In this document: piece by piece, positions 2,975 to 51,425 of the stretch | Numbering within the stretch: the stretch's first letter is position 1 | Layout: the number at the start of each line of letters is the position of its first letter | Assembly: GCA_951406725.2 (NCBI GenBank) | Contig: OX597816.1 | Span: forward strand, 176,204,001 to 176,268,000 | DNA: 64,000 nucleotides | Direction: 5' to 3' | Source: Octopus vulgaris | Taxonomy: Eukaryota | Program-made: the position numbers and the translations under genes | Notes under the pieces: model-generated | Seen by the model: only the letters and a program-made list of their open reading frames with translations | Told to the model about the DNA's origin: nothing | Databases searched by the model: none

Positions 2975-3017
2975 CGCTCGGACTAGTTTCGGGATTTTTG
3001 TCCCTTGTCAACGGGCG
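2975..3017 (-). ncRNA. minimal type-I hammerhead ribozyme motif, U3-A8 variant
   Basis: Minus strand reads CGCCCG-UUGACAA-GGGA CAAAAA UCCC-GAAA-CUAG-UC-CGAGCG. Stem I has one mismatch, stem II is 4 bp, stem III is the palindrome ACUAGU, and the cleavage triplet is GUC. Confidence 0.75.
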
Positions 3018-3860
3018 GTAACCACCAGGTCACGATGAAAGAGAAGGCCGCCTTGCAAATATATAAGAGTTTTTCTAGTGACGTCTGCCACTGATTTCGA
3101 ATAATTTTAATTACAAATTTTAATTACAAATCAAACAGGTAAGATGCATTAAGAATTTCAATTTTAGTGTTTATCCATAATATTATTGCTTTTACATCTG
3201 TTGATTAAATTTACCTTCCCATAAAAGTCAAATTCAATCAGCAAGATCAGCTAAAATTACATAACTATAAACCACTGGTATATAAGCACCCACTGACAAA
3301 ATTTCAAATCTGCATGTAAAAAATTAACTAAGTTACAAGCAAATATTTTGGACACCCCCTTTGAACCTGAATAATTCAGAATAACATGAGCAAATAAGCA
3401 TTAAATTTTACAGATTAAACTGAGCACTAAAGGGTTAACTGCACAAGTCTGATATCCAAGTGACTGAAAAGTGTCAGTACCCAGAAATCATGATCTGATA
3501 TATTTGGAGCTATGTCCTTTTAGTTGGATAATCTTCAGTACAAATGTGTGTGTGTATGTACACAAACACATATACACAAGATGTATATATATGTATACAT
3601 TGATGTTTGTTTTTATGTTCAGTTATAATAAAAATAATTTTATATTAATCTGATGGGCTATTCTATATTTTCATAGAGTACAAATTTATCATTCTCATAA
3701 AAGGATGTTTTTATCTGACTTTGAAGTTAAGGCAAGTTAAGCCTTCATCGGACTGCAGTATGATGATGACTTAGCTGGCCATAACTTTAAAGTCACTGTG
3801 AACAACATTCTTGGATAAAAATAGTAAATATATGTGTATATGTATGAATATATATATATG

Positions 3861-4190
3861 CAATTACAGCGTGGAAGGTGTTTATAAGCCATTTAAGAAA
3901 CACACAAAAGTCGTTCGATTCACTTCAACATTTAAGTTTAATTTGTCAAAATATTTTCGTCGCTAAAATCCGCGACCTGTTCACTGACAAAAATCCGGAT
4001 TTTTGTCAGTGAACAGGTCGCGGTCTTATAGCGGCGAAAATATTTTGACAAATTAAACTTAAATGTTGAAGTGAATTGAACGGCTTTTGTGTGTTTCTTA
4101 AATGGCTTATAAACACCTTCCACGCTGTAATTGTTTTCGTTTCAGCACACGATCTCAGATCAAATTACTTGCTATGCAAGTACATCTCCT
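3861..4190. mobile_element. head-to-head inverted copies of a Penelope pseudo-LTR-like repeat (palindrome 3861-4133)
   Basis: Arms of about 136 bp meet without a spacer at AAAATCC|GGATTTT (3996/3997). The same family recurs at about 12930-13135. Confidence 0.7.
4002..4052 (+). ncRNA. atypical hammerhead-like motif, G3-C8 variant (mirror copy at 3942-3991 on the minus strand)
   Basis: UUUGUCA-GUGAACA-G-GUCGC(loop)GCGGC-GAAA-AUAUUU-UGACAAA. Stem I is 7 bp, there is an extra nucleotide after A9, stem III is the palindrome AAUAUU, and the triplet is UUU. Confidence 0.55.
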
Positions 4191-4771
4191 ATATATATAT
4201 ATATGAATATATGTATAAATATATATGTGTAAATCACAAAACCTATTCTTTCCACCTTTCCTAAGTGTTAAACTAATACGTTCCATGTGTTTGTGCGTTT
4301 GTTATTTTTAATGCTCAAATGTTTGTTCAAGTTTTAATTCAATTTGACTATATATGTGTGTATATATAGGTATGTATGTGTATATATAGATTAGAGGCAG
4401 ATATTCTCTGTATAGAATACTCTTCGTAGTGCTCAAGAAATTTGAACTTGAGCAGGTAGAGGAGGAGTAAATGTAAGGACAAGCAATTTAGGCTGGTCGA
4501 CACACAAAAAATATTAAATATATTTAATACAAAAAATGTACATATAAAAAAGTCTGACTTACACAGAATAGAAATGATATCAGGAATTAAAGGGGTTGAG
4601 TGGTAGTTTTATGAGTTCAACAGCTGTTTCTGGGGGTTTGGTGGTGCAAATTAATGATTGTAACTTGATTCTATCAACAGATAATGACAGCCTCCATCTT
4701 CAGGGAGGAATTTTACATTTGAGGTGTTGACAGAATGGAGAGAGAGAAATAAAAAACCCAAAAGGAATATG

Positions 4772-4803
<32 letters not shown>

Positions 4804-5883
4804 TGTGTGTGTGTGTGTGAAGAAGTGCCACTCCCAAAGTGTTGAAGGAACCCGGGATAGAGGTAGACCCAGGAAGACATGGGATGAGGTGGTCAAGCAT
4901 GACCTTTGAACGAAAGACCGAGACCTCTGGAAATATGCTGTGACTGCGAAGACCCGACAAATGAAGTGAGTTCATGGCTCGCAGGACGGCCTGCTATGCT
5001 AACCTCGGATTGTAGGGCGACCTGCTGTGCTTGGGGAAACCTATTGAGTCAAGTACATCAATATCAAAATAAAAATCAAATGGATAGTGTAGTTGTGGTG
5101 CCCGTGGCACGTTGGGCCTCACAGTGGAAATGATGAAAGACCGAGATCTGAGATATGCTGAAGTCAGTTCATGGCTCGCCGGACGGCCTGCTGTGGTAAC
5201 CTTGGATTGTAGAGTGACCCGCTGTGTTTGAGGAGACCTATTGAGTCAAGTACATCAACATCAAAATAAAAATCATGAAAATTGTAGTCATGATACCCGT
5301 GCCAGTGGCACGTAAAATGCACTGTCCAAGCGTGGCTGATGCCAGCGCTGCCTGACTGGCATCCGTGTCAGTGACACGTAAAAGACACCAACTGATCATG
5401 GATGTTTGCCAGCCTCCTCTGGTCCCTATGCCGATGGCACATAAAAAGCACCCACTACACTCACTGAGTGGTTGGCGTTAGGAAGGGCATCCAGCTGTAG
5501 AAACTCTGCCAGATCAAGACTGGAGCCTGGTGCAACCTCCTGGCTTCCCAGACCCCGGTTGAACCGTACAACCCATGTTAGCAAGGAAAATGGACGTTAA
5601 ACGATGATGATGATATATATATGTGTGTGTGTATATATATGTATGTATAGATATGTATATATATATAGAGATACGTAATAGAAATATGTTATAAAAAGAA
5701 AATAGAAACTACACAAGGAAATGTAAGGGGAAAGTAAGAAGAAAAACAAGCGAAAATGCACATTGGAAGTAAAAAAAGGTAAAGGCTTTTTATGAAAAGT
5801 AACGATAGATATACACAATTACTTGAACTGAGGTAGGAATAAAAATAATAAAGGTCATTATTGTGAATTGTTAAAGAGATTCA

Positions 5884-5922
5884 AAAGCATACGGGTTTCG
5901 TAAATTTACTACTCATTGCTTT
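5884..5922 (-). ncRNA. minimal type-I hammerhead ribozyme motif, A3-U8 variant, in a Penelope 3' end
   Basis: Minus strand reads AAAGCA-AUGAGUA-GUAAAUUUAC-GAAA-CCCG-UA-UGCUUU. Stem I is a perfect 6 bp, G10.1-C11.1 is present, and the triplet is GUA. It lies downstream of the GIY-YIG remnant on the same strand. Confidence 0.7.
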
Positions 5923-6079
5923 GAATACACAGCAATTAATGAACTGTGTCAGTTTTACTAGTCACTGAGTAAAAAGATTATGTGTAAGGGAGGTAAGTAG
6001 TTCAGGATTTGGTGCAATTAGGGTAGATATAGATCTGTACTGTGTATGGGATGTATGGGGGTTATTGGTATTAATTGAA

Positions 6080-6296
6080 AGGCGGCGAGCTGGCAGAAAT
6101 GTTAGCACGCCAGGCGAAATGCTTAGCGGTATTTCGTCTGTGTTACGTTGTGAGTTCAAATTCCGCCGAGGTCGACTTTGCCTTTCATCCTTTCGGGGTC
6201 AATAAATTAAGTACCAGTTACGCACTGGGGTCGATGTAATCGACTTAATACCTATGTCTGTCCTTGTTTAGCCCCTTGTGGGTAATAAAGAAATAG
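6080..6296 (+). mobile_element. SINE family AGGCGGCGAGCTGGCAGAA (also 10153-10387 +, 28638-28871 +, 54618-54831 -)
   Basis: GAGTTCAAATTCC B box and GCCTTTCATCCTTTCGGGGTC central box. Clear TSDs: GGTATTAATTGAAA here, GGTACTACACTTTGCC at 10.1 kb and GTTATATATTATCTTAT at 28.6 kb. Confidence 0.88.
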
Positions 6297-7189
6297 GTAT
6301 TAATTGAAAGGTTAGTAGTGTTCTGTATTATGTTATGTGTTCATATTGAGTTGGGGAAGATATTTATTGATGAAAGTTGCCTCTTTATTCATTCCTTGTT
6401 GTACTGAGGTGTTCTGCGAACATTGATAGAAAGGGGAAATTAGGATTAAGATTCCTATCACACCTTTCTATGTGTTCACTGACCTGTAACTGTCTGTATT
6501 GTGGGTGGCGGATTTGTTCTTTGTGGATAGTGGTTCTTCGACGGAGTGATATTCCTGTTTGGCCAATATAATTATTACCACACCCTAAACATGTAATGGC
6601 ATAGATTAGATTTTCCGAGGTACAGGAGAAATTTGATTTGATCTTAAATATTTCACCTTGTTTAAAGTGGAACTCTGAACCCTCCAAAAAGGGGGGGGGG
6701 CATGTACCACAGTTAGGTCAACCACATTTTTTCGCTTTTGATTCTGTTGTTAATGGATATAGTCTTGCGCTGGTTAATATTTTCTTCAGTGATTTAGGTT
6801 GCATTTTGCTTTTGATAATTTTGTATGAGCTTAAAATTTTGTTCATTGTTTTATCTCCTGTGAAGATGGGAATATTTTGGGTGCTAATATTGAAAGCTTC
6901 GTTGCTTCTAAGGTTATATGTGGAGATGTACGGGAGTATTTTTAAGTCTGGTTTAGTATTTCAGTTGACTTCCCTTAATGTTCGTATATCTATTTCCATA
7001 GCTTGTTTATAGATATGTATATATAGATATGTATATATATAGATATGTATATATAGATATATATACGTATGTATATAGATATATATATGTATGTATATAT
7101 GTGTGTATATTTATGTATACGTGTGTGTCTATATATACATACGTGTATAGATATGTGTATATTTATGTACATCTGTGTGTGTATATATG

Positions 7190-7220
<31 letters not shown>

Positions 7221-7667
7221 CCAGCTGTAGAAACACTGCCACATCTGACTGGCCTGGTGCAGCCTTCGGGCTTCCCAGACCCCAGTTGAACCGTCCAACC
7301 CATGCTAGCATGGAAAGCGGACGTTAAACGATGATGATGATGATGATGATGATATATATATGTATATGTGTGTGTGTGTGTGTAGGTATATATATATTTA
7401 TTTCTATTAACATGTCTGTTTGATGAGTGTTGTTATTTATATCTTTTCTGATGAGATTGATGCATTGCTGGCCATGATTTATCCTGTTGGACATTTTTGG
7501 AGTGCATCTGTCAAAACATACGTAGAAGACTTCAGGGTATAAATGGTTTAACATCCCAAGCATTCCTCTCCTTATTCAATTTTCCTATATTTGTATATAT
7601 GTGTATGTGTGTGTGTGTATATAAATATATGTATAGATGTATATATATATATATATATATATATACA

Positions 7668-7709
<42 letters not shown>

Positions 7710-7814
7710 TGTATATGTGTATATAGATGTGTGTGTATATATAGATAGATAGATAGATGTATATGTGTATATAGATGTATATGTTTATATAGATGTATGT
7801 GTGTGTGTGTATAG

Positions 7815-7879
<65 letters not shown>

Positions 7880-8032
7880 AAAAAAAAGGGACAGGCAACA
7901 GGTTGCTTGACCACATACTGAAAAAGTAGAAATAGCAGTCAAGAATGCTTATTTCTATTTTCCACAAGTGGGGCTCTACCAGTAAATAATTGTGGTCTTT
8001 TTTTAAAAACCATTATAGAAATTATTTACTCT

Positions 8033-8090
<58 letters not shown>

Positions 8091-8093
<3 letters not shown>

Positions 8094-8490
8094 AGTGGCT
8101 GTGTGGTAAGTAGCTTGCTAACCAACCACATGGTTCCGGGTTCAGTCCCACTGCGTGGCATCTTGGGCAAGTGTCTTCTACTATAGCCTCGGGCCGACCA
8201 AAGCCTTGTGAGTGGATTTGGTAGACTGAAACTGAAAGAAGCCCGTCGTATATATGTATATATATATATATGTGTGTGTTTGCGTGTCTGTGTTTGTTCC
8301 CCTAGCATTGCTTGACAACCGATGCTGGGGTGTTTACGTCCTTGTCACTTAGCGGTTTGGCAAAAAAGAGACCGATAGAATAAGTACTGGGCTTACAAAG
8401 AATAAGTCCCGGGGTCGAGTTGCTCGATTAAAGGCGGTGCTCCAGCATGGCCGCAGTCAAATGACTGAAACAAGTAAAAGAGTAAAAGAG
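8091..8490 (+). mobile_element. tRNA-headed SINE with CORE-like box and GAGTAAAA tail (also 14523-14937 -, 41901-42310 +, 52668-53067 -, 53452-53861 -, 60747-61153 +, 61520-61900 +)
   Basis: A box TGGCTGTGTGG, B box GGTTCAGTCCC, CTTGGGCAAGTGTCTT, an internal (TA)n(TG)n, and the 3' end GACTGAAACAAGTAAAAGAGTAAAAGAG. Confidence 0.88.
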
Positions 8491-8495
8491 AGAGA

Positions 8496-8546
<51 letters not shown>

Positions 8547-8559
8547 TGTATATATAAAT

Positions 8560-9500
8560 TGACTCAAAAAGTTTCAGTTTTTTCATGTGCTGTTTGTTTA
8601 CCCCTTTCTCCTAACCTATACTGCCCATTCAATTTTCTGATTACTACCTTATTCTTCAGCTCTCCTCTCATTCTCCTATTCACTTGCCCCAGTTCTTTCT
8701 GTGTCTTTTCCAGCTTCATTCATATTCTCTTCCTCCAGTTTTGGTTCTTTCTTTTCATTTGCTTTTATATCTTCAGGTTTTCACTTGTAACCTACAATGT
8801 TACCTATGACATTACCAGCAGCAGCTGGTTTGTTTTACTGATGTTTTCTGTTTCATTCAAGCTTATAACATTCCTCACTTGTTTTCTGTCCATACATCTT
8901 ACATTTGGTGGTACTTCATTGTTGCCATCAGATATTTTACCTTGAAACATTTCTAAGATTTCTTTGTCTTAAATTTTGTGCGGTACTTACTGTCACTTCA
9001 TTAGTTACTTTATCAGTATTCTCTGGTACTCTGGTTTCCATCTGTTTCAAGTTCTTCGTATCTTTCCCTTTAATTACTACTTTAATTACTACTGCTGTTT
9101 CACTCTCCTTCTGCTCTCTTTTTATTATGTTTCTCCGATTTCTTCAATCTCTACTCCCGTTATCCAATTGTCTCAATGGATTACTCTTGCTTGCTCTATC
9201 AGTCACTGGGGTGGATGCTTCAAAACCTCCTTTTTCATCCCATATTCTCTTCATTTGATTCATGAAACCTCTTTTATTTGACTTACATCTCAGCTGGCAC
9301 TTTATTACTATTTAGTTTACATCTTTTCCCCATTTTATTCTTTTTCTTCTGCACTTTTGACTGCAATTCTGGTCCTGATCAATAGCTTGATGACAACCTG
9401 CTGGAACTTCATCAGGTACTCCCTGCCTACCATGCACGACACCTTCACTGTTAACAGCTCCACTCCCATTAGCACAGTTGTGGTTATTATTTAATTTTAA
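8560..9500 (-). pseudogene. decayed R4/Dong-like non-LTR retrotransposon N-terminal region
   Basis: Minus-strand pieces KRGFMNQMKRIWDEKGGF...EQARVI..NWITGVEIEEI and KEPNWRKRI..KLEKTQKELGQV...KLNGQYRL resemble R4-clade ORF N-termini (recognised by eye). Confidence 0.55.
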
Positions 9501-11317
9501 CATCACTCATTTGGCCGAAGCCAGCGCCGCCTCGACTGGCTTCCGTGCAGGTGGCACGTAAAATGCACCAATCCGACCGTGGCCGATGCCAGCCTCGCCT
9601 GGCACCACTGCAGGTGGCACATAAAAAGCACCCACTACACTCATGGAGTGGTTGGCGTTAGGAAGGGCATCCAGCTGTAGAAACATTGCCAGATAAGACC
9701 GGAGCCTGGTGCAGCCTTCTGGCTTCCCAGATCCCCGGTCAAACCGTCCAACCCATGCTAGCATGGAGAACGGACGTTAAACGATGATGATGATGATTTA
9801 GAGGTAGCATTTGTAAGGTTGTGCAATCACCAGTATTTCTAATGTGACACCATCACTAGGCTTGTTGCTAGCCAAGGCTCCAAGAGTCTACATCTACCTT
9901 CATGTACACTGTTTTTTGTGCCAGTCTTGTTCTATCCATTGTTTTATATCTTTGTATTTGACATTTTCATTCCTGAGAATTTTGGTGTTGAAGTGGCACA
10001 TCCATCAGTGTTTTTATTGAGACACCTTCTCTAGAGGGGTTGCCAACCAAGGCTAAAGGGACCCTTCCTCCCCTGAGACAGGCTTAACCCTGCCAGACGT
10101 CAATGTGGTATTTCCAGATCTTTGGGTAGGCTTACAGGTACTACACTTTGCCAAGGCGGTGAGCTGGCAGATACGTTAGCACGCCGGGCGAAATGCGTAG
10201 CCGTATTTCGTCTGCCGTTACGTTCTGAGTTCAAATTCCGTCGAGGTCGACTTTGCCTTTCATCCTTTCAGGGTCGATAAATTAAGTACCAGTGATGCAC
10301 TGGGGTCGATATAATCGACTTAATCCCTTTGTTTGTCCGTGTTTGTCCTCTCTGTGTTTAGCCCCTTGTGGGTAGTAAAGAAATAGGTACTACACTTTGC
10401 CCAATGGTGACCTGAAGAGTAACTTTGTTCTTCCCACATCGTGATGCCACAACTGGTTGCAGTTTCATGCCATACTCAAGGTGTGTTATCATTAGTATTA
10501 TCATCATTTGCTTGTGTTGTTAGTGGTGGTGGTGGTGGTGGTGGTCGTAGCACTGGTGTAAACTATTGTTCTCTTTGACTATTTCCTGTAGTCCTGGTGG
10601 CTCTGTTACCATTATTGCTCTTCTGTCTCTGATTGTTTCTGTTGCTTTTGTGTTTGCGTTCTTGTTGTTGACTGTGTTGGTGGGATGGCCTTTGTTGTTA
10701 TTGATTTAGAACACTTTCTATGGCCTTCCAAATTGGAGTACTAATGTTCATTCTCTTTGACATGCTGTTTTTACATATTTGGGTGGGAGTAGGGGCTGCT
10801 GGATGAGTTTCTGGTTTGGTCTGTTAGGAGCAAAGGTGGTTAGATTGGCTGTCTTGCCATATATGTGCCCTGGAGCATTATTTTCATGGCCATTCAGACT
10901 GCTTGGTTCGTTTTCAAATAGCTGTCTGGTTGGTCAGGTATTATTATTTAACTATTATTCACCTTACATCTAGATCTCACCTCTTTCTCTTTCCTGGTAG
11001 GCAAGCTATGTATTCACCTCTTAGGCAAGGCACCTGGTCCTTGTCTATCATAGTTTCTTATCCCTGCATTTTGTACCCAACACAATTGAGAGGCCTTACT
11101 TTGCAGATACTTGACAACCTTTTTAAGTGGCTCTGCTGGTGTCATATAACAAACACCCAGTACACTCTGTTAAGTGGTTAGCATTAGGAAAGGCTTCAAG
11201 CTGTAGAAACCAGGCCAAAGCAGACATAGAATCTGGAGCAGCCTTCTGGCTCATCTATTCTTATCAAACTATCCAACCCACGCCAGTGTGAAAAGGACAT
11301 CAAATGATGATGATGAT

Positions 11318-11359
<42 letters not shown>

Positions 11360-11454
11360 TAAAGTTAATCCAAACATGAAAACACAAAGAGAAAACACAA
11401 CAACGCGAGGACGTGGAACAAATATAGTATTATTGGATGCAAGGGAAGAAGGAG

Positions 11455-11490
11455 GGTTTTACGTTATGAGCGGAGCTCTTCGTCAGAAAC
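11455..11490 (-). ncRNA. degenerate hammerhead motif (C3-G8) in a Penelope pseudo-LTR-like repeat (~11360-11548)
   Basis: Minus strand reads GUUU-CUGACGA-A-GAGC UCC GCUC-AUAA-CG-UA-AAAC. The GAAA box reads AUAA, so it is probably inactive. Confidence 0.5.
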
Positions 11491-11555
11491 ATAGAAGGGA
11501 AGACAGAGGAAAAAAATCGCCAATGGCACACACTCGGTCACATTTTGGAATATAT

Positions 11556-11591
<36 letters not shown>

Positions 11592-11688
11592 GAATAAAAA
11601 ATGGAGTTAACGCAGGTGTAATTTTGCTGCCCTGGTAACTATTTATTTATTTTTCCGTGTTAATTGTTAACAAGGTAAAAATACACTC

Positions 11689-11721
<33 letters not shown>

Positions 11722-11775
11722 GATAGATAGAAAGGTACAATATGTATACATTATATGAAACATACATAATATATA

Positions 11776-13144
11776 CTAGCAGAAAGTTCGCCCCTGGTCG
11801 GTTTTCTGCTAGCCCCTTGATAATATTTTCACATTTGATTCCAATTTCTAATAATTTTAATATTTTACATCTAATTATTTCTTTGTATAACAGTGCTCAC
11901 TTGCTAGTAAATATTGCTTTCATTATTTTATAACAGTCATAATCTCTCTTTTTTAAGCAAACATCACTGTAGTCCAAAATCAGAGGGAGAAGCAGTTTGT
12001 TGTGTTTTACCTTCACCTCAAAGCAACATAGAGATTTCAATTCAGCAGTTCTTTTGTGTGTGTGTATGAGAGAGAGAGAGAGAGAGAGAGCACATGGCAA
12101 ACAATGAATGAAATAAACATGAAATTTTAAAATTGTATAAATAAAAGGGCATTACTATATGTATATGCCCCACCACCACTACCACTTTGTTGCCTCATAT
12201 CATCCAGAAAAATGGATACTTTTTTACAATTTTAAATTTCCTACAAAAATGGATACTTTTTACAAAATTTATAGGGATTTATAGGAAAGAATTTTTGCAA
12301 GGGGGTGGAGAGAGGATTTCAGAAAATTCACATGATCTGACATTTTTCCCTCATAACTTTCAGGAAGGTAGGTATCTTTTAATGAAAATTTATACAAATA
12401 CCTTTCAAATGGCATAGATTATGATTAAAAAGAATTTTGTGGGGGATTTTCCCCATTTTTTAAACCACGACCTTCAAAGTGATGGGGTGGGGGACATCTT
12501 TGTATAAAAAAATTTTGAAAACTTCTTTTTTATATCCCTCCCCGCCTCATTATCCCACTCTGGACCTATTTAGGCCAATTTTTTTCCTCTTCAAAACCAT
12601 GGGAAGAGCATTTATGGTAAAAAAAAAATTTTTTAAGCTATTAATACTTTCAGAGGGAAAAGTGATTTAAGGGTGATTTGGCTGTTGTTTCTAGCACACC
12701 CGAAGACAACCCACCTTGTTCCTTTATCACTCTCGCATGTATTGATGTTTTTCAATATCCCCCCCCCCATAAATACATTTATATATTGTAAAGAAGAAAA
12801 TTTGAGAAATTATGAATTTGTTGCAAGCCTACTCCCTGACACCAATTATTTCTGTTTAGAAATTAAAATATTGAAGAGCCTGAGAAGGTCATTGCTGGCT
12901 TTATCCACAGTGATTTAAAAAAAATTTCGGGAATGTACTTTGCATAGCAAGAGACTTGATCTGAGATCATGTGCTGAAACAAAGACAATTGCAGCATGGA
13001 AGATGTTTGTAAACCATTCAAGAACGCACAAATACCATTCATTTGTGTCAAAATATTTTCGTTGCTTTGAAACTGCGACCTGTTCAGTGACAAAACTTCA
13101 CAAACGCGATGCAGCAAAGTTTTATCAGTGAACAGCACACGCAT

Positions 13145-13182
<38 letters not shown>

Positions 13183-13750
13183 ATTGCCTTTCATTTGCAT
13201 GTATGTGTATCTATGTGTTTGCGAGTGTATGTGTCACTGTTAAAGTTGTGTTTGGAAACTGAATAAGATGCAAGTTTCAAGCAGTTGTTAGTAACTTTTT
13301 GTTTTTTTTCTTCTCATCTTCTAATAGTAATTATCCAATTTTCCAGGCTCTTCTCACAGCTATCCCACACTCAAAAATTATATGGATATTTTTTTTAAAT
13401 TTTCATTCAATAAATAATGTTTTTACATTATGTATACATTAACAGCAAATTAAAACTTAAAAGAGAAAGTGAGAGACTTCGCAAATGAAAATAGAATACT
13501 TTGCAGTGAATGCAATGAATATTTAAATTTGTGATTAATTGGACGCAGTGAATATTTAAATTTGCGAGAAATTGGAGTTTAAAAAATTCAATGAACTTGA
13601 GAAATCGAAATTATAGAAAATTTCTTTGAACATGAATTTAACATGAAATATTTCCAGACAGTCAACTCTTTAATAATTGCTTTCTTTAAGTACTTTTAGT
13701 AATTGTCACATACCTAATTAATTAGCAGCTTTCTCCATTATAGTATAGAT
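11776..13750 (-). mobile_element. possible non-autonomous Helitron-like element
   Basis: CTAGCAGAAA...TTTCTGCTAG inverted repeat at the left end, and a minus-strand start ATCTATACTATAATGG at the right end. Confidence 0.4.
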
Positions 13751-13930
13751 AGTATATCTTCTATCTTGTTTCAGTCATTCGACTGCAGCCATGAGGGTCA
13801 TGACCATGAAGGGGTTAGCTAAACAAATCAATCCCAGTACTTATTTTCCGAAGTCTGGTACTTATTTTATTGGTGTCATTTGCTGAACTGCTAGATTTAA
13901 GAGATGTAAAGAAACCAATATATAGATATA

Positions 13931-14237: not shown

Positions 14238-14275
14238 CATATAGATATATATGTTTGTAATTTGTTAAATTTCAG

Positions 14276-17570: not shown

Positions 17571-17659
17571 CAATGACATTGATGATATCTTGAGTGAAGT
17601 ATTAACCTTACATGTTCTTAATTCTTATGAGGGATTTTCTACCAATGTAAAACAGAATT

Positions 17660-19145: not shown

Positions 19146-19269
19146 TATGATACTCTGGATAAATGTGATCAAGGATTTTATTGTAGTCTATATTAAGATG
19201 AAATGTTTCAATAGATTATATTTTGCTGAGTTTTGCCTATTTCTCGAGATCATGAAGTAAATAAGATTT

Positions 19270-20400
19270 GCTTTCTTTCTCAACATTGAACACGGCATCC
19301 ATCATTGACTCTATCACATCACTGACTCCTTCACCTGCACTTCTACCAATGTCATCTACTGCATCTCCTGCTCTCTCTGCCCTTCTCTATACATTGGACA
19401 AACAAGACGCTGCTTGGTTGACTGGTTCGCGGAACACCTCCGACTTAGCATTGACACCCTGGTCTTGCGTCATTTCTGCTCTACCAGTCACTCTTTGCAA
19501 CACCTGTCCGACTTCGGATTGTCCTTGCACAGGGGCATATGAATTCCCGTTTGCACCATGAACAGAGATTAATCTTCTCTCTTCATTCCTTTGCACCACA
19601 TGGGCTCAACTCCCCTCCCCTCTTTATCTAACCTCCTCCCCTCGCCTCTCCACCTCACACCTACTCCTTCCCACCTCTCCTCTCTTGCTCCGACTCCTAC
19701 TTCTTCTCTTAACTCCTACTCGCTTTCTCTCTTCTCTTCACTCCTATCCACCATCTCCTTCCCTTTCATTGTCACACCTCCCTTGTAACCCCACCCCTAC
19801 ACATTCCAACCCCACCTTCCCTATCCTCCCCACCCCCTCCCACATACCCTGCCTCTAACCCCACCTACCTACCCACATACCCCACCTCTATACCTACCCT
19901 CAGCCTAACCTGCATCCCACCCTTGCTTTCCCACTCTCGCCTCTCCCACCTTGCACCACCATCACACCACACCACACCACACACCACCATACCACACAAC
20001 ACATCACATCACACAACCACGCACACACTAGCACTGACCACTTCCCAGCCCCACATCTTCACACCTACACATACACACACAATCACACGTCAAGCTCTTT
20101 TCCACATTCACATACATACTCTCTTATATACATGCACGCGCACCTTCGTTTTGGGATCACCACTACTTTATTATCTCCCCTTCTTCCTAGCTCTCCTGTG
20201 TGACCCTTCTGTCCGGCATTCGCCATGATAGATCGCTAGCCACAGTTCACATTCTTTATTTTCTCTCCTTGTTTCTTTCTGTGGAAAAGCGTAGGCTCGA
20301 AATGTTAAAGACTTATTCACTTCTCAAGCGTTAAACTAATGCATCTGTTTGTTGTCTACACCACCTGTCTTTTGGTTTGTTTGGTTTTTTTTTGTGAATT
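19270..20400 (+). mobile_element. second Penelope-like retroelement 3' fragment
   Basis: A frame starting at 19315 and not listed in the ORF track reads HITDSFTCTSTNVIYCISCSLCPSLYIGQTRRCLVDWFAEHLR. After a frameshift it reads EQRLIFSLHSFAPHGLN. A C/A-rich spacer and a hammerhead-bearing end follow. Confidence 0.85.
20274..20311 (+). ncRNA. degenerate hammerhead motif (C3-G8) in a Penelope 3' end
   Basis: UCUUU-CUGUGGA-A-AAGC GUAG GCUC-GAAA-UG-UU-AAAGA. A6 is substituted. It lies downstream of the GIY-YIG remnant at 19315 on the same strand. Confidence 0.5.
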
Positions 20401-21070
20401 CTCCCTCTGTACAATCTAACCATGGACAGAAAAAACTGACTGACTAAATTGGTTTCAATCATTGTAATTTCCTCAACAACCAACTATTCTTCTCTTACAA
20501 CTAGTGGTAACATTGTGTTTATAGTCACTATTATTATTATTGACTTTGTTAAATCACATACACTGATTTACACAAATGCCAGTTCAATTGCGAAGTAACT
20601 AACATGTTAGTAATTATTCTTGATGTTATGATGTACTACCAGTATTGAAGCATGTGTGAATTAAAATTAGTGAAATATTTTAGTTGTAAACAGTATTTTA
20701 TCACATGGTCTTGAGTTTAAACTTTATCACAGTTATCCATGTCCAAGGCACACGATAACTGTTTGTTTCAGCTTGGTAGAATGTTAGGAAGTGCAAAACA
20801 CTTTTTTTTTTACCAAATTTTTTGCAACCATTGTATTGACATTTTTACACATCTGACATAATTTCAATTCTTAAATATATTTATTTTCCTTGCAGGTGGC
20901 ATGAACAAAACAGGTCTAATTTCTTATTGAGAAGTAAATAACATTTGTATGAGATAAATAACTATTGATTGATTGAAAGATAATGTGTTTTAGAAATATC
21001 TAGAAATAGTTATGTGAAGTGAGGGAAAATTGAGTCTGTTTGTTATATCATAATTATTGACTATTATTAG

Positions 21071-22292: not shown

Positions 22293-23939
22293 CACTTGCG
22301 TCAGAAATTAATTAGCACTTCTCAAATTTCTACATTTTCTTACATTTTTTTAATTTAATTAACTTATTATCAGAAACGAACCCGTTTTTAATCAAAAATT
22401 TATTAAAACATATCCCACCATACCACATAATAGTCAATATCTTGTTGCACAGGTACTGTGCAGGGATGGCCCTCCATGCAGCAAGAAGTGCCCCAAACAG
22501 CTCGTGTCAGTTCCTGTATTGCTGCACATTCAAATCCCTACCCAATCGACTCCAGAGGTTCTCAATAGGGTTCAGGTCAGGTGACTGGCCAGTCCATGAC
22601 TGTCACCCTATGGTCCTTGAAGAAACCGGTTGTGAGCTTGGCTGTGTGGGGAGGCGCGTTGTCCTGCTGGAGCACGTACTCCTCGCCACCAAAGAGTTAT
22701 CCCGCAGAGGGTAGGGCAGCATTCCGTACTATCTCAACGTACTTTGCTGCGTTGATGTTGCCTTCGACGGCATAGAGCTGCCCAACACCACTGTAGCTGA
22801 ACGCCCCCCACACCATCAGACCACCCCCACCATGCTTCATGGTGGGAGCAATGCAGTCTTTGTTGAAGCGCTCACCCCTGCGGCGTCGCACATGGACAGG
22901 CTTGTCACTGACGAGACTGAAGCGCGACTGGTCAGTGAACATCACTGTCCGCCACTGCTGCACGGTCCATGTCTTGTGGGCACGGGCCCAGAGCAGCCGC
23001 CTCTTCCGGTTTTGGGCTGTAAGGAGCGGCTTACGGGCGGCCCTACAGGATTTTAGACCAGCTTCCAGTAATCTGGTCTTGACGGTGGTTGTAGACAACT
23101 GCTTCCCTGTCACCTTTTGCATCTCCTCCGCCAGTTGCCGGCTCGTTGCCCTTCGGTTGTTCAGCGACTTTCGGATCAGCATCCGGTCCTCCCGCTGGGT
23201 CGTCAGCCTCTTCTGTCCCCTACCCTTTTTGTCAGCTGCTGATCCGGTTTCTTCGTATTTCTTAAATAAGCACTGAATTGTGCGCCTGGCTACACCAAGT
23301 TTTCTGGCTATTGCAGCCTCCGACAGCTTCCCACGCCACGAGAGAGCCTCGTACCGTCTCTCCAAGGTCATGCGAGGTCTTGGGCCCCTCTAGGAATGAA
23401 CGACAAAAACCAGTTATTTTCATTAAAACTATTCATTTGAATAATGTTATGCTATAACAAAACTACTATGAGTTATTATTCATTAAACAAAAAAGAAAGA
23501 AAGCAGAATTTCTCACTTTATTTGATGTATAACAGAAAGTTTTGTGAACCGGAAGTGACCTCATCAAGCAGAGTGTAGGAGAATTTGTGAGGAAAAAAAA
23601 TCTTGCAAATACACAAATCAATTAACCTACAAGCTGTTCAAAACGTCTTACGCGATGAGAAAACTTAGTACGGTGTGATTTCGGTCCTTGCGAGGCGCTA
23701 CCTATATCTATTAAACAAAGGAAGATTTGTCTGCATCCGCACTCCAAGCTATTGTTGCACTGCTGTGTCAACATCATTAGGCTGTAGACTCAAACCGCTC
23801 TGCAAACAAAGTTACGTCATCGTTCTGCGCAACAGTGAACTCGCAACAAAGCAATAGTTCGAGATATGGCCACTAGGTGACAGCACATACCTTGAGTGAA
23901 GAGCAAATCAAGGGTGCTAATTAATTTCTGACGGTAGTG
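22293..23939 (-). mobile_element. full-length Tc1-family DNA transposon, inactive
   Basis: 26-bp TIRs CACTTGCGTCAGAAATTAATTAGCAC / GTGCTAATTAATTTCTGACGGTAGTG with TA on both sides. The transposase ORF 22697-23371 has an HTH, RKPLL, FTDQSRF and KHGGGGLMVWGAF. It continues through frameshifts into LQQDNAPPH and QSPDLNPIENLW. Confidence 0.93.
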
Positions 23940-23950
23940 TATATATATAA

Positions 23951-40654: not shown

Positions 40655-40975
40655 CATTGTTGGCATCCTTTTTGTCTCGGGAGACAATGGAGTTGCGCAT
40701 AAAATAGTCCAGTCCGGCTTTTACATTTCATGTCCTGATACACTTCCTGCTGTGGCTGTGTAGTCCTATCCTGGACAAACACTCCCTCTGGCAGGTACCG
40801 CAAATGTAGCGAAGACTGTTCCTGGCTGGTTGTAATGCCATAGTTTCTTGTTGACGTCTTTTCTTGTCTTTCCATTTCTCCTCTCTCTCTCTGTCACTCC
40901 TTTGTATTCCCTCTCTTACGGTACGTCGCCAGTCTCCACGGTTGCCGGCAACTGCCTCCCAACCGCTAATATTAT
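40655..40975 (-). mobile_element. second BovB-like RTE 3' fragment nested in another RTE
   Basis: WEAVAGNRGDWRRTV...YICGTCQRECLSRIGLHSHSRKC, fused in frame to host-RTE sequence (ORF 40728-41054). Confidence 0.8.
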
Positions 40976-43842: not shown

Positions 43843-44265
43843 CCTAATTATTACACACATGTGAGTGAGAACACTTTGAGATATTTTTGGTATCTAACAT
43901 ATGTCAGATACTGCGAGTGCTGCTTCTGATTGGTCAATCCATGGTGATGACCCGAGGTCACGGTGACAGCGCTGCTTCTGATTGGTCAATCCATGGTGAT
44001 GACCTGAGGTCACGGTGACGGCACTACTTTTGTCATTCATAAGTTACAACTAAACATGAAGAATTTAGTTATTGGGTTAATAAAATATGGTCGTTTATTC
44101 GTGTGTAATAAATAAAATACCAAACTCATTCCCTATGGATACTGTATTTATTACAACGAGTGGCTTGTAAACGTATCTAACAAGCGAAAGTGAGTTAGAT
44201 ACGTTTACAAGCCACTCGTTGTAATAAATACGGTATCCATAGGGAACTCATTTGGTATTCTCTAT
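43843..44265. mobile_element. non-coding DNA-type element with long internal hairpin, inserted in an RTE copy
   Basis: TTATTACACAC / GTGTGTAATAA inverted pair, a 2 x 52-bp tandem (43919-44022), and 53-bp inverted arms 44129-44181 / 44194-44246. Confidence 0.65.
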
Positions 44266-44797
44266 ATCTCTGATGACCATATAGAGGATCCCTAAGCTTC
44301 TAGATCGGTCTTTTTTGTGGTACCCTTCTGGCCTGAGGTCTAATGTTATTTACGACTAGTCTATGCTGCAGGGTACATTCTTCACCAGAGAAGATCTTTG
44401 CATTTATGAGCAACCATGTATCTCACTGTCTGGTGAGAATGCAATCGATCTGGCTAGTGTGGTCATCTGATTGATAGGTAATCAGGTGGCTGTCTAGCTT
44501 CTTCAAGTTGGTATTGCAAATCGATAGGTTATTCACATCACAAAACTCCAGTAGCCTTGTCTTCTCTTCATTTCGAGAACCTATTCCATGGCCCCCATGT
44601 GCACTATGGAACATACCTGGCTGCTGCCCAACATGTCTTCTGAAATCACCAGCCACGAAGATGAGATCATTGTTATTCCTCTTTGAGATAGCCTGCGGAA
44701 GGATATCATAAAAGCAGTCCTTTTGTTCATTTGATAGATCCGCTTGCAGGGGCATAAGCAGAGATAATTGTCGCTGTTCTATTTTGCAAAACTAATC

Positions 44798-44833
<36 letters not shown>

Positions 44834-44857
44834 CTGTACATCACATCCAAACCTTCT

Positions 44858-44909
<52 letters not shown>

Positions 44910-44924
44910 GTGTGTGTGTGTATA

Positions 44925-45204
44925 CTAGCGGTATTGCCCGGCATTGCTGAGGTTTGTTTTGACACATTTTTCTGTTTGAAATACGCCGAAAAATGGCGAC
45001 ACAGCAGTCAAAAAATTGTAAAAAATAAGGATTTTCATAGAAAAAAAGCACCTTTTTGATGTAAATAAGTTTTGGTGTTAATATGGTCCAATTCTATCAT
45101 ATCCTCAATTTTGGTCAACTTACGCTGCAGGGTCTTGAAGGAGATTATGTTAGTTGAAGGCTACCAAACCTGCCACATATAGACAACTTAAGTTTTATAT
45201 ATAT
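44925..45204 (-). mobile_element. non-autonomous Helitron-like element
   Basis: The minus strand starts TATATATAAAACTTAAGTTGTCT and ends with a GC hairpin remnant plus ...ATACCGCTAG. Confidence 0.6.
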
Positions 45205-48200
45205 ACTGAAGGTGACCAGCTCTACGCGCGGGTAAGAGTGTGGTTGTTACTTTCTGTTGCTTCCTTTCAGCACGTAAAAAGCACCATCCGAACGTGGCCG
45301 ATTGCAGCGCCACCTTGACTGGCTTCTGTGCCGGTGGCACATAAAAAGCGCCAACCGATCATTGCCGCTGCCAGCCCCCCTGGCACCTGTGTCGGCGGCA
45401 CAAAAAAAGCACCCACTATACTCACAGAGTGGTTGGTGTTAGGAAGGGCATCCACCTGTAGAAACACTGCCAGATCAGACTGGAGCCTGGTGCAGCCTCC
45501 TGGCTTCCCAGATCCCGGTCAAACTGTCCAACCCGTGCTAGCACGGAAAACGGACGTTAAACGATGATGATGATGATTCTCCCTCTTTGTTTCTCTCTCC
45601 TTTCTCTCTCACTTTTCCCACTCTCTTACTCTTCCTTTCTCTCGGACTCTCCCTCGCTTTCTCTTACTCTCTATCTTTATCTATCTCTCTCCCATTTATA
45701 AACAACAAAAGATCTTGAGTAAGTTGAGAAATAAAATATTTAGAAAGATCAATCATAAATATCAGGCAGTAACAACGGAAAGGTCTGCTTCAAGGCAGAC
45801 AGCAAAACACTAACATTTAAAAGGGACAGACGAACTTGCGAGCTGAATGAAAATAATAAAATATTAGAAACCAAAGTTTGAAGGGATAGAATTTGAGGAT
45901 AGTAGAGTCACCATGGCTGGCATTTCTTAACGACGGACAGCAACGTATTGACAGTTCAACGGCTGGCGTAAAATTTTGAACTTGATGTAAAAGAAAATCC
46001 CTAAAAACCAAGTTTTGAATCGATTCTTTCTCATGACAGTAGACTCACCATGGCAAGCATTCAAAACTTCTTCATCATGGACGGCAACACATTGACGATT
46101 AAAAGGCTGGCACAAATTTTTTAGCTTGATGTAACAGAGAATTGCTAAACACCCGCTCCTTTAAATTTTAATCCCCTTCCAGCCCCATTTAGACCCCTTT
46201 TCACATTTTGGTTAATATAACCCGATTTCATTTGGGTCTACTGGGGCCACATTTTATAAGATGAGGACTCAACCAAGTTTCCCGAGTTCTGGTCATAGAC
46301 CATAGAACACTCAACCAAGTTTCCCGAGTTCTGGTCATAGACCATAGAACAGTCAAGCAAGTTTCCCGAGTTCTAGTCATAGACCATAGAACACTCAACC
46401 AAGTTTCCCAAGCTCTGGTCATAGACCATAGAACACTCAACCAAGTTTCCTGAGTTCTAGTCATAGACCATAGAACACTCAACCAAGTTTCCCGAGTTCT
46501 GGTCATAGACCATAGAACACTCAACCAAGTTTCCCAAGCTCTGGTCATAGACCATAGAACACTCAACCAAGTTTCCTGAGTTCTGGTCATAGACCATAGA
46601 ACACTCAACCAAGTTTCCTGAGTTCTGGTTATAGACCATAGAACACTCAACCAAGTTTCCCGAGTTCTGGTCATAGACCATAGAACACTCAACCAAGTTT
46701 CCCGAGTTCTGGTCATAGACCATAGAACACTCAACCAAGTTTCCTGAGTTCTGGTTATAGACCATAGAACACTCAACCAAGTTTCCTGAGTTCTGGTCAT
46801 AGACCATAGAACACTCAACCAAGTTTCCTGAGTTCTGGTTATAGACCATAGAACACTCAACCAAGTTTCCCGAGTTCTGGTCATAGACCATAGAACACTC
46901 AACCAAGTTTCCCGAGTTCTGGTCATAGACCATAGAACACTCAACCAAGTTTCCTGAGTTCTGGTTATAGACCATAGAACACTCAACCAAGTTTCCTGAG
47001 TTCTGGTTATAGACCATAGAACACTCAACCAAGTTTCCCGAGTTCTGGTCATAGACCATAGAACACTCAACCAAGTTTCCCAAGCTCTGGTCATAGACCA
47101 TAGAACACTCAACCAAGTTTCCTGAGTTCTGGTCATAGACCATAGAACACTCAACCAAGTTTCCTGAGTTCTGGTTATAGACCATAGAACACTCAACCAA
47201 GTTTCCCGAGTTCTGGTCATAGACCATAGAACACTCAACCAAGTTTCCCGAGTTCTGGTCATAGACCATAGAACACTCAACCAAGTTTCCTGAGTTCTGG
47301 TTATAGACCATAGAACACTCAACCAAGTTTCCTGAGTTCTGGTTATAGACCATAGAACACTCAACCAAGTTTCCCGAGTTCTGGTCATAGACCATAGAAC
47401 ACTCAACCAAGTTTCCCAAGCTCTGGTCATAGACCATAGAACACTCAACCAAGTTTCCTGAGTTCTGGTCATAGACCATAGAACACTCAACCAAGTTTCC
47501 TGAGTTCTGGTCATAGACCATAGAACACTCAACCAAGTTTCCCGAGTTCTGGTCATAGACCATAGAACACTCAACCAAGTTTCCCGAGTTCTGGTCATAG
47601 ACCATAGAACACTCAACCAAGTTTCCCGAGTTCTGGTCATAGACCATAGAACACTCAACCAAGTTTCCTGAGTTCTGGTCATAGACCATAGAACACTCAA
47701 CCAAGTTTCCCGAGTTCTGGTCATAGACCATAGAACACTCAACCAAGTTTCCCGAGTTCTGGTCATAGACCATAGAACACTCAACCAAGTTTCCCGAGTT
47801 CTGGTCATAGACCATAGAACACTCAACCAAGTTTCCCAAGCTCTGGTCATAGACCATAGAACACTCAACCAAGTTTCCTGAGTTCTGGTCATAGACCATA
47901 GAACACTCAACCAAGTTTCCTGAGTTCTGGTTATAGACCATAGAACACTCAACCAAGTTTCCCGAGTTCTGGTCATAGACCATAGAACACTCAACCAAGT
48001 TTCCCGAGTTCTGGTCATAGACCATAGAACACTCAACCAAGTTTCTGAGTTCTGGTTATAGACCATAGAACACTCAACCAAGTTTCCTGAGTTCTGGTTA
48101 TAGACCATAGAACACTCAACCAAGTTTCCCAAGCTCTGGTCATAGACCATAGAACACTCAACCAAGTTTCCTGAGTTCTGGTTATAGACCATAGAACACT

Positions 48201-51200
48201 CAACCAAGTTTCCCGAGTTCTGGTCATAGACCATAGAACACTCAACCAAGTTTCCCAAGCTCTGGTCATAGACCATAGAACACTCAACCAAGTTTCCTGA
48301 GTTCTGGTCATAGACCATAGAACACTCAACCAAGTTTCCTGAGTTCTGGTCATAGACCATAGAACACTCAACCAAGTTTCCCGAGTTCTGGTCATAGACC
48401 ATAGAACACTCAACCAAGTTTCCCGAGTTCTGGTCATAGACCATAGAACACTCAACCAAGTTTCCCGAGTTCTGGTCATAGACCATAGAACACTCAACCA
48501 AGTTTCCTGAGTTCTGGTCATAGACCATAGAACACTCAACCAAGTTTCCCGAGTTCTGGTCATAGACCATAGAACACTCAACCAAGTTTCCCGAGTTCTG
48601 GTCATAGACCATAGAACACTCAACCAAGTTTCCCGAGTTCTGGTCATAGACCATAGAACACTCAACCAAGTTTCCCGAGTTCTGGTCATAGACCATAGAA
48701 CACTCAACCAAGTTTCCCGAGTTCTGGTCATAGACCATAGAACACTCAACCAAGTTTCCCGAGTTCTGGTTATAGACCATAGAACACTCAACCAAGTTTC
48801 CTGAGTTCTGGTCATAGACCATAGAACACTCAACCAAGTTTCCCGAGTTCTGGTCATAGACCATAGAACACTCAACCAAGTTTCCTGAGTTCTGGTTATA
48901 GACCATAGAACACTCAACCAAGTTTCCCGAGTTCTGGTCATAGACCATAGAACACTTAGCTAAAATCTAGTTTCTACCTAGTCTGAACAAATCAATCCGC
49001 CGCAGTCTTCATCCACACAGAGCTTACTCAACCATGTTCCAGTTCCAGCGACAGACGACCAGACCAGCCAGTCATGTTCCTGCTCCAGCCAATGACGACG
49101 CTAACATACTCCAGCAACGCCACTGACGCCTTCATCTCAACGTTGCCATCACCATCGTCGTCCTTCACCTTCACGTCGTCTCCATCTCCGTCGCCTTCAT
49201 CTCCAGCAACACTAATATGTACATAGCACTCATTCAGGTTTAGCTTTCACGCTGTTATGATTTTCACCGAGGTTAACAGCACAGCACTACCTGCGAGATC
49301 TTCTGTACCAATGTAACCTGGCACAGCATTGAAGCCACAACCACTACACAACATGTGTTCAACCGGCATCTGCACTTGTGATCCGAACATCCTGTTACAG
49401 AACGAACTGCTATTATGTACTTTACTACGAACTGGGAAATTAACTCCATCTTGTCTGAAATACCCTGAGAGACTTTTCCTATGCACTGTATTTTGTTTTG
49501 CCCACATACACCTTGTTTGTACTTCTGTCGCACACACGAACACACATAGTTAATACACACACAAATGCTATCTCTGTCACATTCATACACCACACATGCC
49601 TTTCTTGATTGTTTTTCATGCTCAATGTGCCCTTGTAAACACAACTCATCTCTGTAAGACCCTAGGTCGGTCACGTATACATAGAGAAAGTTGTTTGTCC
49701 CTTACAACGCGCCAGCATGCCATACTTTTGTTCCTGCACGACCAAGGCATATAATAGCTCAAGCACTGGCTGGCAGCCTCAGCCTTACTGCATTAATCAC
49801 TGGGATATTCAATACTGTACACTGTATTTCAGCCTAGCAAGCCCTATTGCACTCATGCACCTCTGTTCTGCACATGTACTCCCTTGTTTTGCAACACGTC
49901 TGCGTCAGCTCAATTCTTCTCCCGACTCAAAGCACGTCGGATGTTCACATGCGCTGCGCTCATGTTTAGGCATAATTTCCCCTGTTAGACCCCTGTTGGT
50001 CACGTAATTAACAGAGAAAATTATCTGTCTCGCACCCAAGTTGCACCCAAAAAGTGTAGAAAAGCAACCAGTTCCCTTTACGTAACTATCAAAAAGTATT
50101 AAAAAGTTTAATATACATAAATACAGACATATACACTTTGTATATATACATATTTATATATAGAACACACACACATATATATAAACGCTCGTTGGTGTTT
50201 TCTGTTTGTATTTGGTCGATGGGCACGGTGACAAGTAGACAATAGAATGCGGTGGCGATGGCGATGGAATATTTGTTTCTCTGTATGAATGCAGACAGAT
50301 ACATGAGTAAAAGTTATGGGAAGCTAAGAGATAGAGTGAGTGAAAATGTTCTTACATTAAATAATGGGAGTGGAATTGTCAAAGTTATAAATGAAGGAGA
50401 GTTAGGCGGGAATGTAGGAAATAGCGTGAGTGAGGAAGATGGCCCCTAGCAACCACACCTTTTAAGATAGGGATTTCTAAGGTAGCCCACGGGCATCGTC
50501 ACCTCATTCTACATGTCCCTGTAAATTTTGGAGCGTATCGGACAGGACGTAGTGGCATTGAAAGCGATCCAAGCGGTAAAAACGCATTTCAGTTTTATAT
50601 ATAGAGATAGATTTGCTACACACTACTTTCCATCCTTAATAATGAAACTTGGTAAATCCAAAAGTTAAACACAAAGACACACAAGTTGAGTTTTATATAT
50701 ATAGATTTCTCAACGGGGATTTCAGGGGAGAGTTTCAGGGAGTCGCTGGCGATGTATCGTGATGAACAAAAATTTGGCCTGCTAAAATTTGGTTAAAGTG
50801 ATTCAAACTGCAAACTCAACACAAAATGGTCACATTTAATTCAAAGTGTTAAAAATGTTATGAAAACAATTGGTATGTGTTCACAAAGTCCAAACGATTA
50901 ATACGAAAAAACCCTCCAGGCTACATCCCGAAAATTCATTTCTTGGCCGAATTTCTACAATGTTTACGGCGATTCGTTTTTATATCTTGATTTTTTTATT
51001 TTTCATGCAATTTACTCATGCTTGCATGCGTGGTGAACACAGTTCACGTCAAACAGCTGACTGAGTAAAGTTCACAATTCAATGCATGGGATAAGGCCTA
51101 AACAAACACATTATCGTTTTTTGCACTTGCGAGATGAATTTCGGAACAGAAATAGCGCAGTTCAATTTTCATTCGCCTAAACTTTAAGTGACCCATTGTT

Positions 51201-51290
51201 GGTGGTTCTATGATTTGTTGGCTAGGAGGAGATGTGCCGGGAAGTTAAACACACAGACACACAAGTTGAGTTTTATATATATAAATATAT
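45205..51290 (-). mobile_element. Helitron-like composite region hosting the 42-bp minisatellite
   Basis: A hairpin-like end GACCAGCTCTACGCGCGGGT lies near 45214. Recurrent ...AGTTTTATATATA(GA) ends occur near 50600, 50700 and 51280. Boundaries are uncertain. Confidence 0.4.
46267..48956. repeat. 42-bp minisatellite, about 64 copies
   Basis: Unit ACTCAACCAAGTTTCC(C/T)GAGTTCTGGT(C/T)ATAGACCATAGAAC, with a variant CCCAAGCTCT and one 1-bp deletion near 48044. There are no spacers. Confidence 0.97.
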
Positions 51291-51379
51291 ATATATAACA
51301 AAGTGGAGTTGTAAGGTACTGCACAAGTGGAATTATATATGAAAGAAGGTTTGAAAATGCAATTTTAAAAGATGTTTAT

Positions 51380-51425
51380 TTACTTTACCGGTTTCACTTT
51401 TTTAAAAAAAGATTGTCAAAAGTAA
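51380..51425 (-). ncRNA. minimal hammerhead-like motif, U3-A8 variant
   Basis: Minus strand reads UUACUU-UUGACAA-UC(U)7(A)6GU-GAAA-CCGG-UA-AAGUAA. Stem I is perfect, stem III is the palindrome ACCGGU, and the triplet is GUA. The first stem II pair is a U.U mismatch. Confidence 0.6.

Follow-up and report, generated by a model that had tools for sequence, protein, structure and literature searches.

Hammerhead motifs in the window

The stretch analysed here, called the window throughout, comprises 64,000 nucleotides (nt) of Octopus vulgaris DNA (contig OX597816.1, positions 176,204,001 to 176,268,000). It carries seven sites with motifs of type I hammerhead ribozymes, which belong to six high-copy repeat families, here named A to F. 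The original prediction had described these sites as minimal hammerheads showing all four Watson-Crick versions of the base pair between core positions 3 and 8, and each of its seven core heptamers was found in its place and on its strand. The hammerheads and the elements that carry them are listed by position (minus and plus denote the strand; bp, base pairs).

2975..3017, minus: family B hammerhead with U3-A8, C17, a 6-bp stem I, a 4-bp stem II and HH9-like loops; predicted cut after 2981
2804..3104, minus: family B element, an incomplete copy of a retrozyme-like, non-coding unit of 357 nt, circularly permuted
3942..3991, minus: family A hammerhead with G3-C8, an extra G after A9 and U17; inverted copy without a tail (element 3861-3997)
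4002..4052, plus: family A hammerhead with G3-C8, an extra G after A9 and U17; predicted cut after 4045
~3996-4190, plus: family A element with a tail of about 55 nt
5884..5922, minus: family C hammerhead with A3-U8 and A17; palindrome of stem III broken, G7 private to this copy
5676..7009, minus: family C element, corresponding to the 3' terminus of a Neptune-like Penelope element, interrupted by another repeat at about 6083-6295
6852-6388, minus: GIY-YIG remnant of the family C element, located upstream of its hammerhead in the same orientation
11455..11490, minus: family E hammerhead with C3-G8, decayed, with AUAA in place of GAAA
11338-11561, minus: family E element, a short unit with a fixed 5' end
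12924..13095, minus: older copy of family A that has diverged to 75% identity and has C3·C8, within a repeat that we take to be Helitron-like; absent from the original list
20274..20311, plus: family F hammerhead with C3-G8 and U6; both G10.1 and stem III are affected by decay
19294..20405, plus: family F element, corresponding to the 3' terminus of a Neptune-like Penelope element, with a GIY-YIG remnant at 19309-19611
51380..51425, minus: family D hammerhead with U3-A8, a U10.1·U11.1 mismatch and, in this copy, A17; predicted cut after 51386
51292..52653, minus: family D element, from the 3' untranslated region of a Neptune-like Penelope element

The complete layout of stem I, core, stem II, GAAA, palindromic stem III, UH and stem I' was found in four of the seven sites (2975-3017, 3942-3991 and 51380-51425 on the minus strand, 4002-4052 on the plus strand), the last-named minus-strand site having a stem II that opens with a U·U mismatch. 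The hammerhead architecture proposed for all seven is intact in these four, and the other three (5884-5922, 11455-11490 and 20274-20311) are decayed relative to their families. At 11455-11490 the AUAA removes G12 and A13. At 20274-20311 G10.1 is lost and the palindrome is broken, whereas the U6 of this copy is already a trait of family F. The two GUGAACA sites, which had been listed as two cases, are both real but represent a single family A insertion and its inverted duplicate. In the computed fold this inverted pair forms one long hairpin (−227.6 kcal/mol), so that the hammerhead would be hidden in a read-through RNA. Most likely, the copies in the window are dead insertions.

With three of seven copies decayed, the motifs could be chance look-alikes or randomly decayed hammerheads of the CUGANGA type. 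We scanned the window with a descriptor that leaves positions 3, 7 and 8 free and is by design blind to sites with a changed U4, A6 or first pair of stem II. It gave five matches, four of them with a Watson-Crick pair at 3-8 and three both palindromic and Watson-Crick. The corresponding values for 60 local dinucleotide shuffles of the window were 0.75, 0.25 and 0.017. When Rfam was run on the full window, 81 matches were obtained at E ≤ 10 and none was a hammerhead. On a 301-nt slice, the site at 2975 matched Hammerhead_HH9, including both loops, with 32.7 bits and an E value of 1.2e-6, which is below the gathering score of 52. Rfam returned no hammerhead match for family A and also none for a tandem array with canonical C3-G8 hammerheads (locus L205), which shows that it is insensitive for these hammerheads.

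Core states of the families across the genome

DNA searches with each site gave 1,104 to 5,126 first-look candidates; per site, scores were computed for 40 of these and 30 were retrieved. Since this set is biased toward the window copy, exact patterns with free core positions were counted in the whole 2.8-Gb genome; the core compositions were counted by hand in the first 100 matches, which come from the first contigs. Control patterns that were run reversed gave 0-3 matches.

Family A had 6,124 matches, with G3-C8 in 93 of the first 100 and other states in 7; the pair was also retained in six of eight readable old copies whose stems have changed. Family D had 1,309 matches (U3-A8 in 98 of the first 100), and family C had 246 with A3 (U8 in 94 of the first 100). 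For family E, 13,441 matches were counted, and the first 100 contained 99 with C3, 95 with G8, 62 with C4, 37 with U4 and one with A4. Family F had 9,200 matches, with C3 in 98, G8 in 99 and U6 in 98 of the first 100. In these, position 7, which is known to be free in hammerheads, was mixed while positions 3, 4 and 8 held. Family B differed from the window copy: 254 matches had a base other than A at position 8, all of the 100 listed being U3·G8, as compared to 91 with U3-A8.

Since non-canonical cores form the majority when the core positions are left free, they are states of the families and not decay products of CUGANGA. The proposal that several families have each fixed a non-canonical core of their own holds as a majority state for A, C and D, but U-A is not fixed in B with its excess of U3·G8. 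Likewise, all four Watson-Crick pairs occur, but the picture of four versions, each fixed, is too tidy in view of the wobble, U6 and C4 cores. In particular, the two sites originally given as plain C-G cores belong to families with U6 (F) and mostly C4 (E), which had not been flagged.

Family-typical copies of A to F show a three-way junction of stems I to III that is open at stem I; in D, stem II starts with U·U. The majority state in all six families includes G5, A9, G12, A13, A14, the pair A15.1-U16.1 and a base other than G at position 17. U4 and A6 are kept in A, B, C and D, the pair 3-8 is Watson-Crick in A, C, D, E and F and a U·G wobble in most B copies, and the majority of copies in each family have a palindromic stem III of 4-6 nt. 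An extra base after A9 is present in families A, E and F. Minority copies of family D (loci L275 and L277) have an A-U pair in place of the U·U mismatch with which stem II opens. A further U3-A8 family with canonical type I geometry, which does not occur in the window, was seen at L255 (minus) and L244 (plus).

Two of the unusual states were examined for CpG decay. That U4 in family E is solely CpG decay of C4 was rejected, as U4 is present in 37 of 100 copies and decay of the neighbouring CpG in 5 of 100 per strand. It was also rejected that U3-A8 in family B is solely CpG decay, since C17 and further linked sites go along with A8 and only 1-5% of CpG sites are decayed; part of the 91 U3-A8 copies may nevertheless be decay. 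In family B position 17 follows position 8, with U17 in 11 of 12 U3·G8 copies and C17 in 35 of 35 U3-A8 copies. This may be plain linkage or a compensating change. An avoidance of pairing between positions 17 and 3 would agree with families A, B and C but not with the A17 copies of D.

The co-variation of positions 3 and 8 that had been noted is borne out and was found even inside family C. Thirty-one matches of this family lack A3. They comprised 22 G3-C8, 4 G3·U8, 2 U3·U8 and 1 U3·C8, and 2 C3-G8 rows that were dropped as chance pattern matches without a hammerhead. C8 was present in 22 of the 26 G3 copies, whereas only 2 of the A3 copies had it when the first 100 were counted (Fisher test, p 2e-18), and independent decay would be expected to give about 0.09 double changes. 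The 22 G3-C8 copies have other diagnostic sites in common, which points to a single compensatory event that was later amplified.

A tandem array of 359-nt units with C3-G8 matches family B at 66-67% identity along some 230 nt. Together with the linked states at positions 17 and 8, this kinship suggests a path from C-G through U·G to U-A, the direction being our reading of an unrooted relationship. The array (L205:3083-4560) consists of five direct and two inverted B-related units, each of 359 nt with a canonical C3-G8 type I hammerhead.

As an unbiased test, an 800-kilobase (kb) sample of 80 stretches of 10 kb at round coordinates was scanned with a descriptor that is free at positions 3, 6, 7 and 8 and allows C or U at 4. 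The 22 matches, at 16 loci, comprised 18 C-G, 2 G-C and 2 U-A pairs at 3-8 and no mismatch. In 40 shuffles of the sample, a mean of 1.35 and a maximum of 5 matches were found, with 22 of 54 (41%) paired at 3-8, so that shuffled sequence does not come near the natural rate. By our grouping the 16 loci represent about nine families, and the independent events are therefore far fewer than the matches. CUGANGA was present in 10 of the 22 matches and at 4 of the 16 loci, seven of the ten being from one array. The remaining 12 loci lack it, in agreement with the predicted repertoire that is invisible to CUGANGA-based searches. A wider scan that included the flanks of the loci gave 35 distinct strings, of which 32 were paired at 3-8 and 3 mismatched.

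These numbers bear on the explanation by chance or random decay of motifs selected by eye. The decayed window copies, the 3 mismatched strings and the two apparent C3-G8 members of family C, which proved to be chance matches, speak for it. The majority status of the non-canonical cores, the far lower number of matches in shuffles and the few matches of the reversed patterns speak against it. The counts refute this explanation, and we regard it as extremely improbable.

The elements that carry the hammerheads

All families share a 3' end that is fixed and lies 100-250 nt downstream of the motif, with ragged 5' ends; the roughly 200-nt units of families A and E have a fixed 5' end as well. A and E display an inversion or tail of the Penelope type, with both seen in family A. 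A fixed 3' end, 5' truncation, an inverted 5' copy and an optional tail make up the pattern of the pseudo-long terminal repeat (pLTR) of Penelope-like elements, and this pattern was observed here.

GIY-YIG remnants lie upstream on the hammerhead strand in families C and F, within the window itself, and reverse transcriptase (RT) together with GIY-YIG was found upstream, also on the hammerhead strand, in the longer copies L299 and L300 of family D. The Pfam matches of GIY-YIG were weak on these decayed fragments (E 4e-4 to 8e-3, below the cut-off). The RT fragment of family D resembles HTH_animal clusters at 0.96-0.97; Pfam gave no match for four RT-side fragments, and a PDB search with the RT fragment returned nothing useful. 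The translations of C, D and F contain a CX4CxxC linker before the C-terminal GIY-YIG, and a CX2-5CxxC linker is a feature assigned to Neptune and Nematis (PMC8557442). C, D and F are 3' ends of Penelope-like elements, and the linker makes Neptune their putative clade.

Family B has a different carrier. Its 357-nt unit is non-coding and closed, as the unit end runs into the unit start, and head-to-tail copies with a spacing of 357-358 nt were found at locus L037 and in four pairs of rows of the pattern listing. The unit folds well as a circle in computation (z −4.7). We conclude that family B is retrozyme-like and not a minimal pLTR hammerhead. The assignment of the hammerheads to minimal Penelope pLTR motifs is thus confirmed for C, D and F with their RT or GIY-YIG remnants, but does not apply to B with its full HH9-like hammerhead, and for A and E no parent was found.

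RT or GIY-YIG upstream of the motif was not found for A, B and E. For family A, no shared coding continuation past the tail was seen in 80 rows. The only shared continuation (9 matches) was rejected as a parent, since it is the Helitron-like repeat that carries the old family A copy. Family E showed no Penelope parent among its 30 loci, to which the search was confined. A 191-nt 'tandem' of family A on contig 28 was also rejected as a full element; it consists of two insertions with a microsatellite between them in a duplicated host gene.

The repeat with the old copy (window about 11770-13200, minus; L336-L346) is non-coding, about 2 kb long, has nine exact matches and carries an old inverted-plus-direct family A insertion. 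It ends in a terminal hairpin followed by CTAG, an end that we take to be Helitron-like. At L031 and L032 (contig 28:25045000-25063500), a tandem duplication of about 5.2 kb contains a reading frame of 316 amino acids, presumably a fucosyltransferase exon, with family A insertions in each unit.

Other features of the window are as follows.

22700-23389, minus: stop-free stretch of 230 amino acids, presumably resembling a Tc1/mariner transposase
46231-48966: long tandem array with a 39-base period and a stop-free repeat of 912 amino acids on the minus strand
56188-58824, minus: retrotransposon-like fragments in several frames, which we take to resemble a gypsy-type LTR retrotransposon (RT, RNase H, integrase-like)

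Possible function and relation to known systems

The 3-8 pair of a hammerhead is not known to form outside the active conformation. The retention of this pair through swaps would mean that the master copies were selected for that fold. We favour the reading, with a probability of about two in three, that the motifs of the six families likely still fold into the active form and likely cut the RNA of their element, probably slowly and as dimers or helped by the protein of the element. In its favour are the 22 matches of the 800-kb sample, all paired at 3-8, the swap within family C, the kinship of B with the C3-G8 array and with HH9, the varying position 7 beside constant 3 and 8 in F, the RT and GIY-YIG remnants, and the natural occurrence of U3-A8 and U10.1·U11.1 (PMC3088659). 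The pair is present in crystal structures, and in a pairwise scan the swap to G:C rescued activity (PMC9901934). A Penelope hammerhead was reported to cut only with protein, and the double change C3G/G8C partially rescued it (PMC11167929).

In the mechanism that we envisage, the 3-8 pair would form in the active fold and be kept when its bases are exchanged. The swaps would pass through a wobble, from C-G over U·G to U-A in family B and between A-U and G-C via G·U in family C. In a tandem transcript the palindromic stem III would pair two copies, and the cut after position 17 would release an RNA of unit length. For family B, the released RNA might circularise and be copied back in trans by Penelope proteins. 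The constraint on the core is loose, as families with wobble, C4 or U6 cores have all reached copy numbers in the hundreds to thousands.

A number of observations speak against self-cleavage as the selected function. In the pairwise scan only G:C rescued, and U-A and A-U failed (PMC9901934). Catalytic mutations in the anole Penelope hammerhead left insertion in vitro unaffected, and no RNA ends were detected at its cut site (PMC11167929); A6C and U4C reduced activity in vitro (PMC3088659). In the octopus, the U3·G8 wobble outnumbers U3-A8 in family B (254 versus 91), U6 occurs in 98 of the 100 listed rows of family F (9,200 matches), and C4 in 62 of the 100 listed rows of family E (13,441 matches). 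The copies within a family share ancestry, which leaves about seven independent non-C3 lineage states by our grouping, and the tree of the short family C copies shows no clean separation of subfamilies.

Several of these points are shared by an alternative in which the ribozymes are vestigial. Cutting would then be dispensable, the paired cores would be relics in the master copies, and U·G, C4 and U6 would be steps of decay. It would account for U6 in some 9,000 F copies, C4 in most E copies, U3·G8 in most B copies and the U·U in stem II of D. It also agrees with the in vitro insertion that hammerhead mutants did not block (PMC11167929) and with Naiad elements, which spread without canonical hammerheads (PMC8557442). 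However, decay does not readily explain the compensatory swap within family C at low divergence, nor that none of the 22 matches in the 800-kb sample has a 3·8 mismatch, so that no family with a fixed mismatch exists there. It is also at odds with family F, which holds positions 3, 4 and 8 while 7 varies, and with the G3-C8 pair in six of eight readable old A copies with altered stems. Because the amplified U6, C4 and U3·G8 cores fit a loose, protein-helped function or decay, we give this alternative some weight, although we consider it unlikely.

The fold might instead be kept as a structure, for example as a site where the RT-endonuclease binds or pauses near the start of reverse transcription, with cutting only incidental. 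The position of the motif 100-250 nt upstream of the fixed 3' end in all families would suit such a site, as would the anole hammerhead, which folds for cutting only with protein and whose uncut RNA is the main template (PMC11167929). On the other hand, the catalytic set of G5, A9, G12-A14, A15.1-U16.1 and non-G17 is kept across families with unrelated stems, and a protein site would be expected to keep its sequence rather than a swappable buried pair. A purely structural role is, in our view, improbable.

If the favoured reading of active, self-cutting motifs is extended, a tentative generalisation emerges that we find possible though not probable. In protein-assisted Penelope hammerheads, all four Watson-Crick 3-8 pairs as well as U·G, C4 and U6 might be functional and families might move between them. 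Most hammerheads in such genomes would then be invisible as CUGANGA, and animal counts several-fold too low. The octopus families provide a natural series of cores for which copy numbers, sister subfamilies and intermediate states are available. Related retrozymes have C-G, U·G and U-A, a single Penelope family has both A-U and G-C, and G-C is present in more than 6,000 copies. With short RNAs from this series, one can ask if the spread of Penelope elements depends on cutting by their hammerheads and if the protein of the element relaxes the core rules. For genome surveys, it follows from the 12 of 16 sample loci that searches with a fixed core miss most hammerhead loci of the octopus.

The closest known systems are the hammerheads of Penelope-like elements (Cervera and de la Pena 2014, PMC4209133). 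They are likewise of type I with a palindromic stem III and an extra base after A9, and lie at the 3' repeat of elements with RT and GIY-YIG, mostly as single truncated copies and inverted pairs. The U3-A8 core, which had been put forward as non-canonical, is already described there for Schistosoma Penelope-like elements, and U3·G8 is given in the supplement for a Saccoglossus element. Compared with the parts of this work considered here, the octopus families add majority G3-C8 and A3-U8 cores at high copy, a swap within a family and a fixed U6 or C4. C, D and F resemble the Neptune elements (Craig et al. 2021, PMC8557442) in the C-terminal GIY-YIG, linker, (TA)n-adjacent insertion, 5' truncation, inversion and tail, but their non-canonical hammerheads would escape the descriptors of that survey.

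Family B shares the non-coding unit, the head-to-tail dimers and the predicted strong folding as a circle with non-LTR retrozymes, which have canonical type I hammerheads (Cervera and de la Pena 2020, PMC7229834; bioRxiv 10.64898/2026.07.22.740005), and the 6-bp stem I, the 4-bp stem II and the loops with Rfam Hammerhead_HH9. It is unlike the retrozymes described there in its U3·G8 or U3-A8 core and in being mostly dispersed monomers with a Penelope-type tail, and its circle is putative.

Among the natural variants of Perreault et al. (2011, PMC3088659), U3-A8, U10.1·U11.1 and changes of U4 and A6 occur as well. These are rare single cases, whereas in the octopus they are family majorities with hundreds to more than ten thousand copies; section 8 of that paper makes no mention of A6U, G3-C8 or A3-U8. 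The literature search gave no paper on octopus hammerheads. In the parts of the literature compared, G3-C8 was found only as a laboratory variant and A3-U8 not at all; Lunse et al. 2017 and Przybilski and Hammann 2007 lie outside this comparison and may bear on novelty. Taken together, the literature already contains natural U3-A8, U3·G8 and U10.1·U11.1 as well as inverted pairs and an additional base following A9, whereas the octopus families go beyond the print found with majority G3-C8 and A3-U8 families, a swap within a family and an amplified wobble intermediate.

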